From Nitrosopumilus sp. (lineage in GTDB: Archaea; Thermoproteota; Nitrososphaeria; Nitrososphaerales; Nitrosopumilaceae), in assembly GCA_965205215.1 (NCBI GenBank), contig OZ242041.1:448001-512000 (forward strand): DNA of 64,000 bases. The letters are read 5' to 3'. The notes beneath the pieces are model-generated. The model was not told the origin of the DNA. It did no database searches and was given only the letters and a program-made list of their open reading frames with translations. Within the stretch, counting starts at the first letter, position 1. The number at the start of each line of letters is the position of its first letter. Of this stretch, positions 31,388-39,828 are shown piece by piece. A program made the position numbers and the translations under genes.

Positions 31388-32899
31388 TCAATTCACGGGA
31401 ACCGGCTCAATGCGTTTCCCCACGGGCAGGGCAAAGTAGAAATTACTTCCCTCCCCCTCCGTGCTCTCTACGTTTATCTTGCCGCCCAGGCTCTCCACCA
31501 TTCCCTTGCAGATTGACAGGCCAAGTCCGGTTCCGCCGTGCTTCCTGCTGTGTGACGTGTCGGCCTGATAGAACTTTGCGAACAGCTGCTTCTGCTTCTC
31601 CGGCGGTATGCCGATCCCGTTGTCCTTCACTGAGAAGACAACGTCGGAGTCCTTCCGCTCCGCGGCTATCGTAATTCTGCCGGTATCCTTTGGCACAAAG
31701 TCAATCGCATTGTATACCAGGTTCGTGATCACCTGCTTGACCCTGTCAATGTCGCTGACCATCATGATCTCTTCTTTGCCTGCTACCGTACACTGTATCG
31801 TGACTCCCTTCTCCTGCGCCGTGAGCTGGAAGGACTTTTCTATGACGGCCATCAGGCTGTTTACCGACATCTCCTTGAGGGCGAACTTCATCTTTCCCAG
31901 TTCCAGCTTGTGCGCGTCGAGCAGGTCCCCTATCAGCTTCTTGAGCGTAGTGGCATTCGACAGGATGGTGTTCAGTGCCTCCATCTGCTTCTCATTCATC
32001 TCTCCCAGCAGTTTCGGCCTGGCCAATGCCTGCGCGAATCCAATAATCGGAGTGAGCGGCGACTTTAGTTCGTGTGTAACCATCGACAGGAACTCTTCCT
32101 TCATCTTGTCGATCTTCTCCTTCTCGCTGAGCATCTTCTTGGTTTCGTGCAACTTTGACGTGTCCTTTATGACCACGTTCCTCCCGATCATGAAGCCGTC
32201 GTCGTCGTAGATGTTGGTTGGCGTCAGGAGTGCCGGAAACTCTGTCCCGTCCTTGCGCTTCATCCATATCTCCGAGTCTTTCTCCCTGCCTGTCTTTCTC
32301 CAGGTTGCCATGTGTATGCGCAGGGTATCGACGCTCCTGTCTGCCGTATGCTCGATCAGGTTGCTGCCTATCACCTCGTCCTTGCTGTCGTATCCCAGGT
32401 CCTTGAGGTAGGTTCTGTTGCAGTCTACGATCGTGCCGTTGTAGTTCACTGTCCTGTAGAGATCCGGAGATTTCTCGTACAGGCTCTCAAACTTTCTGAT
32501 CATCACATACTTTTGGAACGTCTTTAGCTCGACAAAATCCATCATGACATCAGATATGCCCGCTACCCTGCCTCTGCTGTCAATGCTGGTGCTTATGGAT
32601 GAGATCGTCTCAATCCTCTTTCCGTCCTTGGATACGATCCAAGTCTTGAGGGTTTTTGATTTTCTCGTCTCCTTCCACTCGTCGAATTCCCTGCGCATGT
32701 CGGCCCTGTGGTCGGGAGGCGTATGCTCATCCATGCTCATCCCGATTACCTCGTCTATGGTGTAACCGAGCTTTTCAGCATACGCTTCGTTGCAGTCTAT
32801 GATGATTCCGTCCATGTTTATCAATCGGCGCATTTCGTGTACCATCTTCTTGAGCTTGGGCTTGTCGACGTGTGTCTGCTCGGCCGTCGTGGATTCCAT
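31388..32899 (-). CDS. Cytoplasmic PAS-PAS sensor histidine kinase
   Basis: Two PAS/PAC domains; H-box MVTHELKSPLTPI; N-box QVITNLVYNAIDF; DNGIGIP, GGTGLGLSI, GEGSNFYF. Confidence 0.95.
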   Translation of the reverse strand: MESTTAEQTHVDKPKLKKMVHEMRRLINMDGIIIDCNEAYAEKLGYTIDEVIGMSMDEHTPPDHRADMRREFDEWKETRKSKTLKTWIVSKDGKRIETISSISTSIDSRGRVAGISDVMMDFVELKTFQKYVMIRKFESLYEKSPDLYRTVNYNGTIVDCNRTYLKDLGYDSKDEVIGSNLIEHTADRSVDTLRIHMATWRKTGREKDSEIWMKRKDGTEFPALLTPTNIYDDDGFMIGRNVVIKDTSKLHETKKMLSEKEKIDKMKEEFLSMVTHELKSPLTPIIGFAQALARPKLLGEMNEKQMEALNTILSNATTLKKLIGDLLDAHKLELGKMKFALKEMSVNSLMAVIEKSFQLTAQEKGVTIQCTVAGKEEIMMVSDIDRVKQVITNLVYNAIDFVPKDTGRITIAAERKDSDVVFSVKDNGIGIPPEKQKQLFAKFYQADTSHSRKHGGTGLGLSICKGMVESLGGKINVESTEGEGSNFYFALPVGKRIEPVPVN

Positions 32900-33301: not shown

Positions 33302-33682
33302 TCAAGCGGATGTGACTTCAGACGCAACCTTTTCCAGCAGGTCTGTTATCTGATCTATGTCTGCCGGCTTTGCCAGTATGGAATAAACGCCCTTCTTGCG
33401 TAGATCGACTTCTATGTCCTCTACGCCCAGATATGAAGCGGTGAAGAGAGTTACGCGCTGCTTCTTTATGATGCCGTCTTGTACAAGCGCGTCTATGACC
33501 TCAAGGCCTGTGAGGTTGGGCATTGACATGTCCAGAAAAACCAAGTCATATTCTTTGCTGCGTATAAGCTCGAGTCCCTCCTGGCCGTCGTGTGCAAGCT
33601 CGAGATTGTGCCCCATCGACTCTACGATGAGACTTATCAGATTTAGTATATCTTGGTTATCGTCAACTGCCAGTACCTTCAT
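33302..33682 (-). CDS. Single-domain response regulator (receiver only)
   Basis: KVLAVDDN, VFLDMSMPNLTG, FTAS, LAKP. Confidence 0.95.
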   Translation of the reverse strand: MKVLAVDDNQDILNLISLIVESMGHNLELAHDGQEGLELIRSKEYDLVFLDMSMPNLTGLEVIDALVQDGIIKKQRVTLFTASYLGVEDIEVDLRKKGVYSILAKPADIDQITDLLEKVASEVTSA

Positions 33683-34140
33683 TGTTACAGATCCCCCGTT
33701 CTTGTGGAAAAGTGAAACGCGCCGCTATTCTTCATTTTATCTTTCCCGTTTCCCTCGGGCGCACCTGCCTCATACGGCAATACAGCACCCCGACGGATCA
33801 GCCATTTATTGGGATCTGCGTTTTCATATGCTGACGGTCTGCGCAGATTAAAGGACAACGTATCGTCCCCTGTGACATACCCGCCATTGAATTTGGACAA
33901 CTTGATGCTATTTCGCCCCCTTGGTTATGTATATGCTTTGCCGCGTGGCGGCCGTTACTGGTTGGGTTGAACGCAAGGCCAAACTTTCCCGGTCATCAGT
34001 TCTATGCGGTACTTGGCATACGCGAATGCGGTGTCAAACCCCTCGAGGTCAAGCTGTTGCGAGGCGGGCTTGCGCGGGTCATAGCGTAGGTCAAGGGAGG
34101 GACGAGGCCTTGGAGCGGCAGTATCCAGATTGAGCAGCTG

Positions 34141-34445
34141 GTGGGGGGGGGGGGAGGAGGGGGCAGCTGGACAAGGGAGGCGGGGCGCTCCGCATACTAC
34201 GAGGACCCGCACAGCCGGCCGTCGACGAACTTCCCGAAACGGAAGAGGGCCTCAAGGAAGGATCCGACAGACTACAAGAGGCCCAGACGGAGGCCGGGGC
34301 ACAGGGGCGTCTCGCACGGCCGCAAGTCATCGCCGACCATACACCACGCCTCCAAGGCGTGCCGGGGATGTAGCAGCGGCAGGTTGGAGGCGGGCCGCAT
34401 CGCGGACACGAGGCAGGCCACCGACGTCCCGCTCGCGCGTGGGCA
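34141..34445 (+). mobile_element. Degenerate IS66-family transposase N-terminal remnant
   Basis: Translation AYYEDPHSRPS...KRKR...KRPRRRPGHRGVSH.RKS..TIHH...C..C....RQ.TDVP resembles the IS66 TnpC N-terminus (PPS, basic linker, PGH.G, zinc finger); no DDE domain; starts in a G homopolymer. Confidence 0.6.
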
Positions 34446-34911
34446 ACGATCGCCTCCCGCGCGGCGCGCGACGGGGGTGCGCGGGATTGTCGGGCGGGGC
34501 CCCTAACCCCGGGGCCGACGGGACGACGTACGGGTTTCTGCACGCTGGATCCGGCACGGTTCGTTCTTGGTCGGCATGTACCATATTATCTCAAGCGTGT
34601 GGCGCGCCACGGCCACCTTGCCTTGCTCGCCCCGCGCCGCTTCTTGTTTTCGCGCATGCCTTTGCCATCCTCGCCCCGCGCCGCATCGTGGTGGCGGCAG
34701 CCTCGACTGTGGCGCTGCGCATCCACTTGGAGCCCCCCTTATTATGCCGCTCCCGCGGTAGGTCGACGCGCCGTTGTGGCGCGACGGCATAACGCCGCAA
34801 CCGCGTCAGCATAGGTGCGTGCTGACGTGGAGGAAGCGGAACCTCGGCGTGTCAGACATGCTGTTGAAGGACTTGGGCGGAATCGAATCAATAACCTGTG
34901 GGCCACGCCCA

Positions 34912-34924
34912 TCGAAAATATATT
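34912..34924 (+). promoter_or_regulatory. BRE/TATA promoter of MFS copy 1 (identical motif upstream of copy 2 at ~37658-37670)
   Basis: TCGAAAATATATT conserved in both copies ~25-30 nt before the GTG. Confidence 0.6.
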
Positions 34925-34946
34925 CAAGACGTTTGCCACACGTTAC

Positions 34947-36488
34947 GTGCGCCGGACTACGTATCTGTTGTTATCTGCATCACTACTGGTCGGCTTCGTT
35001 TGGGGTATACGCGCCCCAATAGTGCCAATCTTTGCCGCCAACGAGTTGGGTGCGACCTACAGTGATATCGGAATGATAGTAACTGTGACTTGTCTGCCGT
35101 ATATTCTGGTACCGCTGGCGCTAGGGATCGTGCTGGGTCGCATAAACGACAAATACCTGCTTACGGCGGGCTTTGCAACGTCTGCCCTGGCGATGTACCT
35201 GATATCCACCTCGACCACCATAACGGAGCTCACGCTGTACTGCCTCCTATTGGGCTTTGCATACTCCCTGATATGGCCCCCGGCGATACACGCCGTCTCC
35301 CAAAACCCCGAGACGAGGGTAAGGCTCACGGCGATGCTCACGATGTGCCGCGTGATAGGCTTTATGATAGGACCGCTGGTCGGATCGTTCATACTAGGAG
35401 CGTTCGGAGTGGATGACCGTACGCTCCTTCTGATTACAGCAATCATAACAAGTACCGGAATTGTCTTGATCGTACTAAATTACCCGCATCACAAGTCAAA
35501 GGGAGTCCAGCTAGATCTTCGCCTGTTCAAGGAGGTACTGAAATTTCCAGTACAGGTTACAGTACTGATATACAGCACCGTCACATTCGGCTTGGTTCTG
35601 TCACTGTATCCGGTATTTATACAGGAGCATGGATTCGACGCCGCCGCCGTAATGCAGCTGTATGCCGTCTTTGGGATCACCAGGATTTTAGGATCGTTTC
35701 TGGCAAAGAAGCTGGCCGAACACAGAAGGGAGACACTTCTGCTGTCCACGTCGTGCGTGATCATAGCCATGGCCGTATCAATGATGGCCACCACCTTTGC
35801 AGAGTTTGTCGTTGCTATGCTGTTGCTGGGATTTGGATTCATTTCCATATATCCGGTGACTCTCGACATGCTACTGGCCGGTTCCAAAAAGTTCACCGCT
35901 GGGAGAATGATAGGGACGTACGAGGGGCTGTACGGGATAGGACTGGTGGTGGGCCCGTTTGTAAGCGGTTACATCGGGTACACCCTGGGTTCGGACAGCC
36001 TTTACTTGATTCTGATTGCTACAGGAGCAGCCGTATTGCTGTTGACGTTCCTGTATCGCAACAAAATGCGTACTACAATAGCCTTGATCAAATACGACGC
36101 CGAATCCCGGAAGAGCAGGGCCATATTCGTCAAGCAGGAGCTCAAGAACCAACTTGGAGTAATACTCATGAGTATCGGCCTGATAAACATGTGTCTCAAA
36201 AAGGCTGGCACGTACGATTCCGTCCAATCTTCCATCGCAGACGCATCCAAGACCATGAACCTGACTACAACCCGCGCCAACGAGATGATAGGCGAGTCAA
36301 ACGACATCATGCATTCCGAGCTGATTCAGGAGATACGCGACACCCTGTCCAAGATAGGCGAGATCGATCCAATGTCGGGAGTGGGCAAAGGTTATCCTGA
36401 CTATGACAATATCAAAAAGATGGTGACGTACTGCTCAGACAGGTTAGATCGCAACATAACCGACGATGCCGTACTAAAGGACTATTGA
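34947..36488 (+). CDS. MFS transporter with a C-terminal HisKA-like helical tail (copy 1)
   Basis: ~12 TM helices with MFS spacing; GTG 34947 preferred because the two copies differ by a frameshift upstream of it; tail FVKQELKNQLGVI. Confidence 0.9.
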   Translation: MRRTTYLLLSASLLVGFVWGIRAPIVPIFAANELGATYSDIGMIVTVTCLPYILVPLALGIVLGRINDKYLLTAGFATSALAMYLISTSTTITELTLYCLLLGFAYSLIWPPAIHAVSQNPETRVRLTAMLTMCRVIGFMIGPLVGSFILGAFGVDDRTLLLITAIITSTGIVLIVLNYPHHKSKGVQLDLRLFKEVLKFPVQVTVLIYSTVTFGLVLSLYPVFIQEHGFDAAAVMQLYAVFGITRILGSFLAKKLAEHRRETLLLSTSCVIIAMAVSMMATTFAEFVVAMLLLGFGFISIYPVTLDMLLAGSKKFTAGRMIGTYEGLYGIGLVVGPFVSGYIGYTLGSDSLYLILIATGAAVLLLTFLYRNKMRTTIALIKYDAESRKSRAIFVKQELKNQLGVILMSIGLINMCLKKAGTYDSVQSSIADASKTMNLTTTRANEMIGESNDIMHSELIQEIRDTLSKIGEIDPMSGVGKGYPDYDNIKKMVTYCSDRLDRNITDDAVLKDY

Positions 36489-36852
36489 ACGCGTGGCAAG
36501 CCCCTTGACATGGCTGCGTAGTCAACGAGCCAAATAACAGAACATTATCACAGCCGGGATCCCTTCCCCCTGCAGCTGCGTTGGCGGATTCCTGCACTCT
36601 TCCGCGCTCTCCGTGGGCGCGGGGTGGATAAAAGAGGGAGGAGAGCGGGCGGTTGCCCTTTCCGGGGGGGGTTTATAGTCAAGCAACTGACAATCCATGG
36701 TTGTCGGATACGCGATTTATACGCCCCCGTGCTGCAGTACACCATAATGAACGCGATAGGCGATGGACTCTGTCCAGTCTTGGTGACCTGGGCGGGACTG
36801 TCAAATAGGTGACCTGTCCGTGATCTGTTTCAAATTGGGTTGCTGACTACGA

Positions 36853-37358
36853 GTGATGCGCCGTTACTTGTCCGCGGATCTCGGCTCCCTGGTGCATGCA
36901 GAAGAGACGCCATCGGGAGGCGTACCGTCGTGGGTGAAGGACACAGCGGGCTTTTGGTCACAAGGTCTGATAGACGACGGTGCGTTTGTCAACGCCATCC
37001 AGTACTTGGTCGAACAAGGAATCATAACACTTTCAACAATGCAGGCGCAGAATCAGGAATCAGCAGAGACGATCTCGGCACTGTATGAACACGTCGGGCG
37101 CCTCAAGGCAGACAACAAGAAACTTGAGGAGATGAACGAGGTGCTTGAGCACGAGATCGAGTTTTTACGGAATACCGAACAGTGTCTAGTTGACTGCGGC
37201 GTTAACTTTGCGGTGACGTCCTGCGAGGCGACGTCCAGTTACGCGCACGTGAAAGGAATCGTACAAAACACGGGTAAGGAGACACTTAGGCTGGAGTACA
37301 CGGCCTATCTGACGGATGCCTTCAGTAACGGGGTGGCGATTGACTCTGGAATGATAAA
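36853..37358 (+). pseudogene. Truncated secreted protein with the thaumarchaeal 'PxW.K..AG.W..G.IDD..F..IQYL' domain and a coiled coil
   Basis: VPSWVKDTAGFWSQGLIDDGAFVNAIQYLVEQGII; the ORF runs on into duplicated non-coding DNA at 37359 and stops at 37485. Confidence 0.7.
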
Positions 37359-39828
37359 TTCCCTCGGGTGCGCCTGCCTCATCAGGCAATACAGCACCCC
37401 CGACGGATTAGCCATTTATTGGAATCTACATTTCCATACACTAGCGGTCTGCGCAGATCAAAGGGCAGCGTGTCGACTCCTGTGACATGTCCACCATTGA
37501 ATCTGGACAGCCTGGTGCTATTTCGTCTCCTTGGTTGCGTATATGCTTTGCCGCATGATGGCTGTGACTGCGCGCTGGCGTGAAGCGGAACCTCGACGTA
37601 CCATACGTGCTGCTGAAGGCCTTGCGCGGAGCCTGCTCAATGGCCTGTGGTTCACAATCGAAAATATATTCAAGTGCCTGCCATACGTTACGTGCACCGG
37701 ACTACGCATCTGTTGCTATCTGCATCACTACTGGTCGGCTTCGTTTGGGGTATGCGCGCCCCAATAATACCAATCTTTGCCGCCAACGAGTTGGGTGCGA
37801 CCTACATTGATATCGGAGTGATAGTAACGGTGACTTGCCTACCATATGTTCTGGTACCGCTGGCGCTAGGGATCGTGCTGGGTCGCATAAACGACAAATA
37901 CCTGCTTGCGGCGGGCTTTGCAGCGTCTGCTGTATCGTTGTACCTGATATCCACCTCGACCACCATAACGGAGCTCACGCTGTACTGCCTCCTATTGGGC
38001 CTTTCATACTCTCTGATATGGCCACCAGCGATACACGCCGTCTCCCAAAACCCCGACACTAGGGTAAAGCTCACGACGAAGCTCATGATGTGCCGCGTGA
38101 TAGGCTTTATGATAGGACCGCTGGTCGGATCACTCATACTGGGGACGTTCGGGGTGGATGACCGTACGCTCCTTCTGATCACGGCATGCATAACAAGTGT
38201 CGGAGTTATCCTGTTCGTACTAAATTACCCGCATCACAAGTCAAAGGGAGTCCAGCTAGATCCTCGTCTGTTCAAGGAGGTACTGAAATTTCCAGTGCAG
38301 GTTACAGTACTGCTATACAGCACCGTCACATTCGGCTTGGTCTTGTCACTGTATCCGGTATTTATACAGGAGCATGGATTCGACGCCGCCGCCGTAATGC
38401 AGCTATACGCCGTCTTTGGAATCACCAAAGTTTTAGGATCGTTTCTGGCAAAGAGGTTGGTCGTACACAGAAGGAAAATACTTCCGCTGTCTACGTCGTG
38501 CGTGATCGCAGCCATGGCCGTATCCATGGCGGCCACCACCTTTGCAGAGTTTGTTGTTGCTATGCTGTTGCTGGGATTTGGACTTGTTTCCATATATCCG
38601 GTGATTCTCGACATGATACTGGCCGGCTCCAAAAAGCTCGCCGCTGGAAGAGTGATAGGGGCGTATGAGGGACTGTACGGAATAGGGCTGGTGGTGGGCC
38701 CGCTTGTAAGCGGTTACATCGGGTACACCCTGGGTGCGGACAGCCTTTACCTGATTCTGCTTGCTACAGGGTTGGCCGTACTGTTGTTAACGTTCCTGTA
38801 TCGCAACAAAATGCGTACTGCGCTAACCGTACTCAAACAAGACGCCAAATCCCAGAAGAACAGGGCCATATTCGTCAAGCAGGAGCTAAAGAACCAACTT
38901 GGAGTAATACTCCTGGGTATCGGCCTGATGGACAGGCGCCTCAAGAGTCCTGGCACGTACAACTCCATCCAGTCTGATATCGCAGATGCATACAGGACTG
39001 TGAACATTAATAGAACCCGCGTCAACGACGTGGTAAATGACGCAGACGATATCATACATTCTGCGCTAGTCAAGGAGATACGCGACACCCTGTCAAAGAT
39101 AGGCAAGATAGATCCAATATCGGGGGCGGGCAAAGGTTACCCTGACTATGACAATATCAAAGAAATGATAGCGTCTTGTACAGACGGGTTAGAACGCAGC
39201 ATAAGTGACGATGCTGTACTAAAGTGACTGTTGAATGCATGATAAAGCGCCTTGACGCGGCTTCGTAGCCAGCGAGCCAAATAATAGAATATCTCCACAA
39301 CCGGAATCTCTTCCCCCTGCAGCATTGGATTCCTGCACCTCTTCCACACTCTCATACAGGCGGTTCCCGATCGCCCTTGTGCGTGTGACCCCCGCTGTCC
39401 TTCCGCCGGATTTGTCCCCGGCGCGTACAGTACATGGAAGTACTGCCGGGACTGTCAAAGCTGCTTGACAGGCGGCAGGCGCTGCACGCGGCCGGCACAG
39501 CCGATGTGGCCAGGACGCCCGGCATCCACGATCAGTCCTGTCGGTAATCGGTGTGGTGGCCGGGAGGGAAGACCAGAAAGAGCGCCAACGCGTCCTCCGG
39601 TGTCCGCCCGCGCGTTCTGGGCTGGCCCGTGCCCTAATCTGCACCCGCTCTCAATGGGCGCGGGGTGGATAAGAAGGGAGGGGGGGGGGGAGGGAGAGGA
39701 GCGGCGGAGAGTTGGACGGTTACCCTCTCCTAGGGATTAGTCAAGTAAACTGACAATTCCCGACATGCCGGATACGCGATTTATACGCCCCCGTGTTTGC
39801 AGTACGCTGTAATGGACGCGATAGGCGA
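37359..39828 (+). repeat. Copy 2 of the tandem segmental duplication (extra ~300-bp segment at 39355-39653)
   Basis: Colinear with 33750-36764; ends in the first codons of the MtrA-like gene. Confidence 0.92.
37692..39227 (+). CDS. MFS transporter with a C-terminal HisKA-like helical tail (copy 2)
   Basis: Close paralog of 34947-36488, intact ORF. Confidence 0.9.
   Translation: MHRTTHLLLSASLLVGFVWGMRAPIIPIFAANELGATYIDIGVIVTVTCLPYVLVPLALGIVLGRINDKYLLAAGFAASAVSLYLISTSTTITELTLYCLLLGLSYSLIWPPAIHAVSQNPDTRVKLTTKLMMCRVIGFMIGPLVGSLILGTFGVDDRTLLLITACITSVGVILFVLNYPHHKSKGVQLDPRLFKEVLKFPVQVTVLLYSTVTFGLVLSLYPVFIQEHGFDAAAVMQLYAVFGITKVLGSFLAKRLVVHRRKILPLSTSCVIAAMAVSMAATTFAEFVVAMLLLGFGLVSIYPVILDMILAGSKKLAAGRVIGAYEGLYGIGLVVGPLVSGYIGYTLGADSLYLILLATGLAVLLLTFLYRNKMRTALTVLKQDAKSQKNRAIFVKQELKNQLGVILLGIGLMDRRLKSPGTYNSIQSDIADAYRTVNINRTRVNDVVNDADDIIHSALVKEIRDTLSKIGKIDPISGAGKGYPDYDNIKEMIASCTDGLERSISDDAVLK

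Follow-up and report, generated by a model that had tools for sequence, protein, structure and literature searches.

A membrane-held helical tail on duplicated MFS transporters of Nitrosopumilus as a candidate docking site for a receiver-only regulator

In the UhpC/UhpB system, a transporter serves as co-sensor of a kinase. The transporter DctA modulates the two-component system of DcuS by protein contact (PMC4280142), and the SLC5-STAC kinases CbrA and CrbS are described as combining transporter and two-component signalling in one polypeptide, in which a complete kinase, that is, a dimerisation and histidine phosphotransfer (DHp) domain with its His plus an ATPase domain, follows STAC on an SLC5 transporter (PMC13022988, PMC7096432). 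Here, we describe a locus that resembles these systems in part. It lies within 64,000 nucleotides of a Nitrosopumilus sp. genome (assembly GCA_965205215.1, contig OZ242041.1, positions 448,001 to 512,000 of the forward strand; this whole stretch is referred to as the window), in which two transporters of the major facilitator superfamily (MFS), encoded by MFS-A (34947–36488, plus strand) and MFS-B (37647–39227, plus strand), continue into a C-terminal tail next to the genes of a soluble histidine kinase and a receiver-only response regulator. The tail is a member of a Nitrosopumilaceae domain family of about 140 aa that is always membrane-held, and it is probably a membrane docking site for the neighbouring regulator.

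Several features set this locus apart from its closest counterparts. While CbrA and CrbS are complete kinases, the window proteins carry a kinase-less bundle on an MFS core, with the kinase separate and soluble, and they do not belong to the SLC5-STAC group. DctA and UhpC contact membrane-bound kinases without a dedicated signalling domain, whereas the contact predicted here is with a receiver and runs through such a domain. In its architecture, Escherichia coli YajR is similar, since a core of 12 transmembrane (TM) helices of the MFS type is likewise followed by a cytoplasmic domain; it holds rank 49 in the Foldseek list obtained with the full-length model of MFS-A. The YajR appendix is a small α/β domain that is not known to be connected with two-component signalling.

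A second group of relevant systems comprises docking surfaces that have lost their His. The Caulobacter pseudo-histidine kinase DivL is reported to sense DivK~P, reversing the usual information flow, and there a His-less surface of the kinase type binds a single-domain receiver (PMC4211667), as is predicted for the tail. DivL differs in keeping PAS and catalytic domains, while the tail is an archaeal bundle of about 140 aa fused to membrane proteins. Histidine phosphotransfer (HPt) proteins are monomeric four-helix bundles that dock receivers; their His-less variants are described as decoys, and membrane-anchored forms have been predicted in plants. A plant example is the pseudo-HPt AHP6, which lacks the His residue. 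The tail differs from HPt proteins in that it has neither an Hpt profile match nor a fold match and bears its motif on helix 1, which runs on directly from the membrane anchor. In thaumarchaea, about 75% of the response regulators are reported to be REC-only and are presumed to act by protein contacts; in the main text of that study, its supplementary tables aside, most of them are described as lacking a conserved gene neighbourhood (PMC5847659).

Full-text searches of the literature on archaeal two-component systems, pseudo-HPt proteins, transceptors, co-sensors and gene neighbourhoods of ammonia-oxidising archaea returned no description of the tail domain, the module or the fusion. This agrees with an earlier sequence-only reading of the same DNA, which knew of no described fusion of an MFS transporter with a pseudo-DHp. 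We consider the domain family and its MFS fusion new; the kinds of system they resemble are His-less docking surfaces of kinases or HPt proteins and transporter-linked two-component sensing.

Carriers of the tail domain and their link to a kinase–receiver pair

Reading positions 29–42 kb of the window in six frames and scanning the products against Pfam yielded the kinase, the receiver, the two MFS genes and a 210-aa open reading frame (ORF). The kinase (31388–32899, minus strand; 503 aa) has the domain order PAS-PAS-HisKA-HATPase_c, with E-values of 1.7e-15 for HisKA and 1.3e-32 for HATPase_c. Its H-box reads THELKSPL, in which His276 is encoded by CAC at 32072–32074. The receiver-only regulator (33302–33682, minus strand; 126 aa; Response_reg, PF00072, E 9.4e-20) has phosphorylation residues D7, D8, D51, S83 and K105 that are invariant in 18 orthologs. 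Both MFS proteins match PF07690 (E 3.9e-37 for MFS-A, 1.3e-40 for MFS-B). In MFS-A, a core with 12 predicted TM helices (34947–36053; Pfam and model) is followed by a further 144 aa beyond the last helix (36054–36488), and in MFS-B the core (37647–38798; Pfam) is followed by 142 aa (38799–39227). The proteins are identical at 411 of 511 positions (80%), the cores being 86% and the aligned tails 65% identical. Gene positions and Pfam thus agree with the sequence-only reading, which had proposed an MFS pair with extensions of roughly 140 aa facing away from a receiver-only regulator and a PAS-PAS kinase; its coordinates were all correct, including those of the Gln and His codons. Neither HATPase_c nor any other Pfam domain follows in the tails, again as it had stated.

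A Pfam scan of both tails at E ≤ 10 assigned them to no family, the best candidate, DUF948, scoring 16 bits where 37 are required, and scanning tails and carriers brought up no NCBIfam or Pfam model for the tail domain. The source genome (G000) holds only the two tail copies of the window. A search with a single tail gave two close relatives, one recorded as Nitrosopumilus sp. and the other as Nitrosopumilaceae archaeon, and a word-indexed search yielded six close relatives that combine MFS core and tail. When 1.84 billion representative proteins were searched exhaustively with HMMER, the tail matched 16 at E ≤ 1e-3, namely twelve of 188–250 aa, two of MFS length (511 and 520 aa), one peptidase fusion of 340 aa and one fragment of 118 aa. 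Among 401 genomes of the same family, 35 from 11 of the 27 genera match the tail profile, three of these matches being weak and containing stops; eight genomes flagged as unpublished (G152, G263, G388, G137, G285, G153, G313 and G312) count in the denominators only.

Most members of the family are single-pass membrane proteins of about 220 aa, while MFS and signal-peptidase fusions are rarer. The short carriers share a plan in which an N-terminal hydrophobic segment is followed by the motif C-S-x-x-x-F-D-P-x-C-S-P-S-G-W, one TM helix and the tail domain. From their topology, all three kinds of anchor should place the tail domain in the cytoplasm. In the carriers of loci L038–L076 (e.g. L039:6998–7654, minus strand), the outer Cys motif directly precedes the TM helix and might act as a minimal sensor of redox state or metals. 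The third anchor, a signal peptidase, was seen in P0013 (340 aa) and at L048:6791–8014 (plus strand), with Peptidase_S26 matched at E 2e-07 and 2.8e-07, respectively.

Gene neighbourhoods covering 7 kb on either side of each solid tail match, plus the regions around kinase orthologs located elsewhere, were scanned ORF by ORF with the kinase, receiver and MFS core of the window and with a hidden Markov model of the tail. Kinase and receiver both lie within 7 kb of 25 of the 40 tail genes, corresponding to 22 of 31 genomes in 8 genera. Linkage was found for 20 of 28 single-pass genes, 5 of 11 MFS fusions and not for the single peptidase fusion (0/1); three of the eight unlinked single-pass genes are on short contigs or at contig ends, and the five linked MFS genes are confined to the source genome, G429 and G422. 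At least five gene orders occur around the kinase–receiver pair. The tail genes are divergent from it in the window and convergent in L038, L039, L053 and L067; the order is tail–kinase–receiver in L047, L051 and L052 and kinase–receiver–tail in L056, and two tail genes flank the pair in L065. Because gene orders vary between lineages, this diversity argues for a maintained linkage, despite the kinship of the genomes. Co-occurrence points in the same direction: full-length kinase orthologs (E ≤ 1e-144) are present in 24 of the 401 genomes, all 24 of which match the tail profile (G002 by a remnant only), compared with 35 of 401 overall. Two-component genes are few in the source genome (2.1 Mb), where HisKA and REC have only two matches each, the kinase and the receiver of the window among them, and Hpt has none. 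Hence, the proposed tie between the tail and the neighbouring two-component genes holds across genera and gene orders.

Alternatively, the bundle could be a general oligomerisation or regulatory appendage whose two-component neighbourhood is inherited synteny without function. This would accommodate the 15 of 40 tail genes that have no two-component genes nearby, as well as the unproven sequence homology to signalling domains and a Foldseek search that returns generic bundles only. It does not sit well, however, with a linkage that persists through at least five gene orders and 8 genera, with the complete co-occurrence among genomes with the kinase, or with a receiver co-fold that passed while its controls stayed at 0.00 (see below), and we regard it as quite improbable.

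Some genomes contain several tail proteins. In G125, G194 and G103, the single-pass form is located beside the kinase–receiver pair and the MFS forms elsewhere, and in G184 three MFS forms, two with His and one with Gln, and one peptidase fusion are all encoded away from the kinase. In one genus, an extra receiver-only gene coding for 144–155 aa is directly convergent with the tail gene, in addition to the kinase's own receiver (L044:7669–8100, L045:7693–8127 and L076:4093–4557, all on the minus strand). In G002 (L080, C1:1997745–2013124), a 55-aa remnant of the N-terminal part of a carrier shares 16 bases with the 3' end of the kinase gene. A receiver was not detected within 7 kb of this kinase ortholog, and the module may be decaying at this locus.

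Motif, fold and predicted receiver docking

Both tails carry the same IFVKQELKNQLGVIL motif, and RAIFVKQELKNQLGVIL is without difference between the copies, although the tails are just 65% identical. The earlier observation of a motif kept identical within a more variable tail is therefore accurate. So is the second part of that observation, since direct reading of the codons gives Gln (CAG at 36135–36137 in MFS-A and 38880–38882 in MFS-B) in place of a phospho-acceptor His. In tail A, helix 1 bears this motif as Q28-E-L-K31-N32. Conservation was counted in 57 to 59 unique tail sequences. At position 28, Gln occurs 41 times, Leu four times, His and Phe three times each and Arg twice, while five further residues are each seen in a single sequence and one sequence has a gap (n = 59). 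Position 30 is Leu in 44/57; position 31 is basic throughout (Lys 54, Arg 4; 58/58), and position 32 is mostly Asn (45) or Asp (8), with a single Thr (n = 59). Hence, the expectation that the motif is conserved in homologs holds for the basic residue and largely for Asn32 (45/59), less so for Gln (41/59). Near-invariant positions are G42 and Y117 (55/57 each) as well as K121 and L131 (53/57 each), Y117 being the end of a conserved loop S-G-x-G-K-G-[FY]-P-x-Y117. A second His, in DI[M/I]HS, had been singled out as kept. It is present in both window copies, but in the family this position, which belongs to an L-D-P motif, is Asp in 38/57 and His in 9/57, and the close relative P0011 has Asn; as a functional residue it was rejected, Asp being found in most relatives.

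The resemblance to the H-box of HisKA kinases is local. The consensus of 20 linked kinases is vtHELKtPL, and the tail pattern Q-x-L-[KR]-[ND]-x-[FL] can be set against their H-E-L-K-[TS]-P-L, so that the x-L-[KR]-[ND]-x-[FL] of tail helix 1 resembles the H-box flank. The His and the acid at +1 are lost, while the basic residue at +3 and Asn at +4 are kept. Tails thus have the flank pattern of Leu at +2, a basic residue at +3 and Thr/Asn at +4, a short motif that is by itself insufficient for membership. Unlike the HisKA DHp domain (PF00512), they lack His in 56 of 59 members (in both window copies it is Gln), a conserved +1 acid, Pro at +5 and an ATPase domain, and instead of a two-helix hairpin that homodimerises into a four-helix bundle and leads into an ATPase domain, the model shows a self-contained bundle. 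In HisKA kinases, the +1 acid is reported to be required solely for the kinase reaction, and the +4 Thr/Asn solely for the phosphatase reaction (PMC3510030). The pattern of lost and kept residues in the tail fits these separation-of-function results, the +4 Asn of the tail corresponding to the HisKA phosphatase residue.

An AlphaFold2 model of the tail (22-row alignment; predicted local distance difference test, pLDDT, 86.8; predicted template modelling score, pTM, 0.77) has helices at residues 2–50, 54–81, 88–103 and 117–134 that form a closed monomeric four-helix bundle. This is in line with the all-helical tail foreseen from the sequence, though not with the dimerising DHp hairpin that had been envisaged. 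A Foldseek search of the model against the PDB gave no match at E ≤ 1e-3 (best 0.11). The best matches are generic four-helix bundles, i.e. the talin rod, the vinculin head and the sensor domains of PcaY and QseE, and neither DHp nor HPt domains are among the best 50, so that the anticipated DHp or HPt structural match did not materialise in any specific form. In the full-length model of MFS-A (pLDDT 79), the 12-TM core aligns to MdfA, NorA, VMAT2 and G6PT with E-values down to 2.8e-11, a fold match from which the substrate of the transporters cannot be inferred. The bundle hangs after TM12 on linker residues 376–386 with a pLDDT below 50, and its packing on the transporter is unreadable from the model.

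Position 28 is His in three members of the family, namely two MFS fusions, at L057 (6959–8521, minus strand) and L060 (6434–8011, plus strand), and the single-pass protein P0014. The His stands in the context S/V-H-x-L-K-D (SVSH[SA]LKD, YVVHALKD). These members could be genuine phosphotransfer versions. Conceivably, then, the tail is a membrane-anchored HPt-like domain in a phosphorelay, in which His members take up phosphate and the Gln forms of the window are decoys similar to plant pseudo-HPt proteins. The three His members of 59, the predicted monomeric four-helix bundle and a predicted docking that places the receiver active site on the motif helix would suit such a role, as would the lack of a Pfam match to Hpt in the source genome. 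On the other hand, His is rare, the His-bearing MFS forms at L057 and L060 are away from two-component genes, and in pair-linked forms position 28 is occupied by Gln, Leu, Phe or Arg, which indicates that the conserved function is something other than phosphotransfer. In fold class the tail is compatible with HPt proteins (PF01627), but a profile or specific fold match is missing and His is absent in 56/59. A phosphorelay role is accordingly improbable.

The receiver was co-folded with the tail using alignments of 18 and 22 rows, respectively. The pair passed with an ipSAE of 0.62 (runs 0.62, 0.47 and 0.66), the best of three controls giving 0.00; the runs have at least 89% of contacts in common, with a partner pLDDT of 78 or more. 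When the tool was calibrated, 58 of 80 solved complexes attained the pass mark, as did 2 of 110 mismatched pairs; these counts apply only roughly because our own alignments were used. On the receiver, the predicted interface consists of residues 9, 11–12, 14–16, 18–19, 22, 53, 82–84, 104–109 and 112, and thus includes helix α1 (9–22), residue 53 beside the phosphorylatable Asp51 and the β4 and β5 loops. The tail contributes residues 27–28, 31–32, 34–40, 42–43, 45–46, 63–64, 67, 71, 121, 124–125, 128 and 132, which belong to helix 1 (27–46, with Q28, K31, N32, G42 and N45), helix 2 (63–71) and helix 4 (121–132). The H-box-like motif helix is therefore part of the predicted interface and faces the phosphorylation site of the receiver. 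Interface positions are somewhat more conserved than the remainder in the tail (0.54 vs 0.42, p = 0.043) and in the receiver (0.73 vs 0.63, p = 0.050). The face formed by α1 and the β5–α5 loop is the one that receivers use toward kinases and HPt proteins in solved complexes, and its predicted placement on the motif helix corresponds to the canonical geometry of receivers on HisKA DHp domains. DHp-like receiver docking is hence seen in prediction, and the suggestion of the sequence-only reading that the tail might dock the receiver is backed by a controlled co-fold with the motif in the modelled interface.

The same data have to be considered for a different partner. As a co-sensor, the tail would bind the soluble kinase via its PAS or DHp part and recruit or gate it at the membrane, making the receiver contact secondary or an artefact. 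The kinase contains just cytoplasmic domains according to Pfam, membrane segments not having been searched for; linkage and co-occurrence are equally compatible with a kinase partner, and the conserved outer Cys motif of the ancestral single-pass carriers resembles a sensor. However, it was with the receiver that the tail passed co-folding, its conserved motif being part of the interface, and the closed bundle of the model speaks against heterodimerisation in the manner of DHp domains. We consider a co-sensor role of this kind unlikely.

Duplication and further features of the locus

The MFS gene was doubled by a tandem segmental duplication that, according to repeat analysis, includes flanks upstream and downstream. 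A segment ahead of both genes (33750–33960, second copy 37359–37570) is 82–90% identical, and one behind them (36498–36576, second copy 39245–39323) is 82% identical and marks the limit of the duplication. The upstream segment of copy A is split by a GC-rich insert of 872 bp (33961–34832) that was found once in the genome. It has overlapping ORFs on both strands, yielded no Rfam match, and coding evidence was not found for it. A poly-G run is located inside the insert (34140–34162), and a comparable run occurs at 39677–39699.

The start codons of both MFS genes are uncertain. MFS-B has a GTG start, and for MFS-A GTG codons at 34815, 34827 and 34947 come into question. The N-terminal extension of the relative P0010 (MRRKRNLGVSDMLLK...) is encoded in the window at 34774–34947, in a frame that differs from that of the MFS-A body. 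Either the relatives differ in their start, or an insertion or deletion has occurred at 34774–34947.

Between the MFS genes, the six-frame reading revealed the 210-aa ORF with a coiled-coil segment (36853–37485, plus strand), whose 3' end falls within the duplicated upstream segment. It is similar to parts of proteins of 503 aa and 571 aa in L064 and L051, and in G429 (L043) its counterpart is split, one ORF coding for 112 aa and a second for 111 aa. This ORF is probably the remnant of a larger gene and a candidate bystander of the system.

Proposed signalling role and its significance

On balance, the tail domain is best explained as a kinase-less, DHp- or HPt-like module for receiver docking that serves as membrane partner of one kinase–receiver pair, a reading to which we give somewhat better than even chances. 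In this model, the soluble PAS-PAS HisKA kinase would phosphorylate the receiver-only regulator, which would then dock via its phospho-Asp face onto the tail, contacting helices 1, 2 and 4. The first of these would offer the H-box-like stripe Q-x-L-[KR]-[ND], with Gln at the place of the phospho-acceptor. Since Gln replaces His and a conserved +1 acid is missing, the tail in the source genome would be unable to take up phosphate itself and would serve as a kinase-less DHp or pseudo-HPt. In the lineage of the window, the domain would have moved onto an MFS transporter and then been duplicated, thereby physically coupling a transporter to phospho-signalling.

The information could flow in either direction. 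As an input, the membrane protein might sequester or dephosphorylate the phosphorylated receiver according to its own state. As an output, the phosphorylated receiver might bind the tail and regulate the transporter, as DivL is reported to read DivK~P (PMC4211667). We slightly prefer the input direction because the kinase is without a membrane sensor, the single-pass ancestor is sensor-like and the +4 Asn is kept; the output direction, with the phosphorylated regulator controlling the transporter, is almost equally likely. A more far-reaching version, which we put forward tentatively and with more doubt than confidence, is that the tail descends from a DHp domain that lost its kinase and, in ammonia-oxidising archaea, turned into a portable module, anchored in the membrane, that serves a receiver-only regulator as receptor or phosphatase, and that on the MFS transporter a transceptor arose from this pseudo-DHp.

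A number of observations weigh against receiver docking by a DHp- or HPt-like tail. Gln at position 28 is common but not invariant, and the homology of the tail to HisKA is not statistically demonstrable from sequence. Neither window tail has a HisKA match at E ≤ 10. For 22 members searched at the same threshold, HisKA and Hpt are both missing from the 25 Pfam families listed, a list that leaves out another 21 families matched by one member at most. With hhalign, the tail family aligned to the DHp domains of the linked kinases in the register proposed by the sequence-only reading at a probability of 0.65% (P = 0.088); a broader alignment gave a different register and a score of 13.2, compared with 6.6–15.5 for 30 column-shuffled controls. 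As the score falls inside the controls and the register shifts, hhalign was rejected as evidence for HisKA. Two profile searches against PDB sequences aligned the kinase 8u4x_A with the Gln on its His at non-significant E-values of 0.1, as the top match, and 0.027. In the second search, tail residues 53–131 (window 36210–36446) matched the funnel helices of RNA polymerase II RPB1 (residues ~692–771) at E 0.0017–0.0037, which is taken as a chance similarity of helical segments. The PDB profile matches were not used as support, as RPB1 outranks the kinase and E-values are unreliable for a helical profile. In the ESM Atlas, 10 of 30 matches are HisKA clusters; recognition amounts to 2092, below the level of 2300, and 149 of 256 shared features would correspond to chance or a distant relative, so that these clusters were kept as a lead only. 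Foldseek, with generic bundles alone, does not discriminate and was set aside as a pointer to the kind of domain. What remains of the pseudo-HisKA claim is a real local H-box-like match, unaccompanied by a Pfam match and with an hhalign score within shuffled controls. Hence, the domain would act like a DHp or HPt surface, and we do not file it in either family.

Further counterpoints concern linkage and docking. The 15 tail genes lacking two-component genes nearby include 6 of the 11 MFS fusions, and outside the closest kin of the window, MFS-fused forms adjoin two-component genes in 0 of 6 cases; the expectation that homologs lie near such genes is thus borne out for the family overall (25/40) but not for these fusions. 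Kinase and tail are apart in four genomes (G160, G143, G184 and G078), and, as related genomes are not independent, fewer separate events occurred than the tallies suggest. Co-variation of receiver and tail interface residues was discarded, because it follows a split into two clades and is inseparable from ancestry. A co-fold pass may also reflect likeness to solved kinase–receiver or HPt–receiver complexes, and the three controls did not include a second receiver domain, which limits what the result says on specificity among receivers. Docking is predicted only, expressing a model confidence that supports binding and does not show it.

Taken together, the tail is a concrete candidate partner for a REC-only regulator in these archaea: a domain of 140 aa with a predicted interface in a conserved three-gene module. 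The wiring is simple in the source genome, since it has only two receivers. If the pseudo-DHp reading is true, the state of transport would set, or be set by, the phosphorylation of the pathway without a DNA-binding output. If docking is true, the few repurposed His-less surfaces of kinases or HPt proteins would be joined by one from archaea, and a new way to couple a transporter with signalling would be at hand. It would also give a first means of approaching, in ammonia-oxidising archaea, the routes by which two-component signals get into or out of the phospho-pathway.

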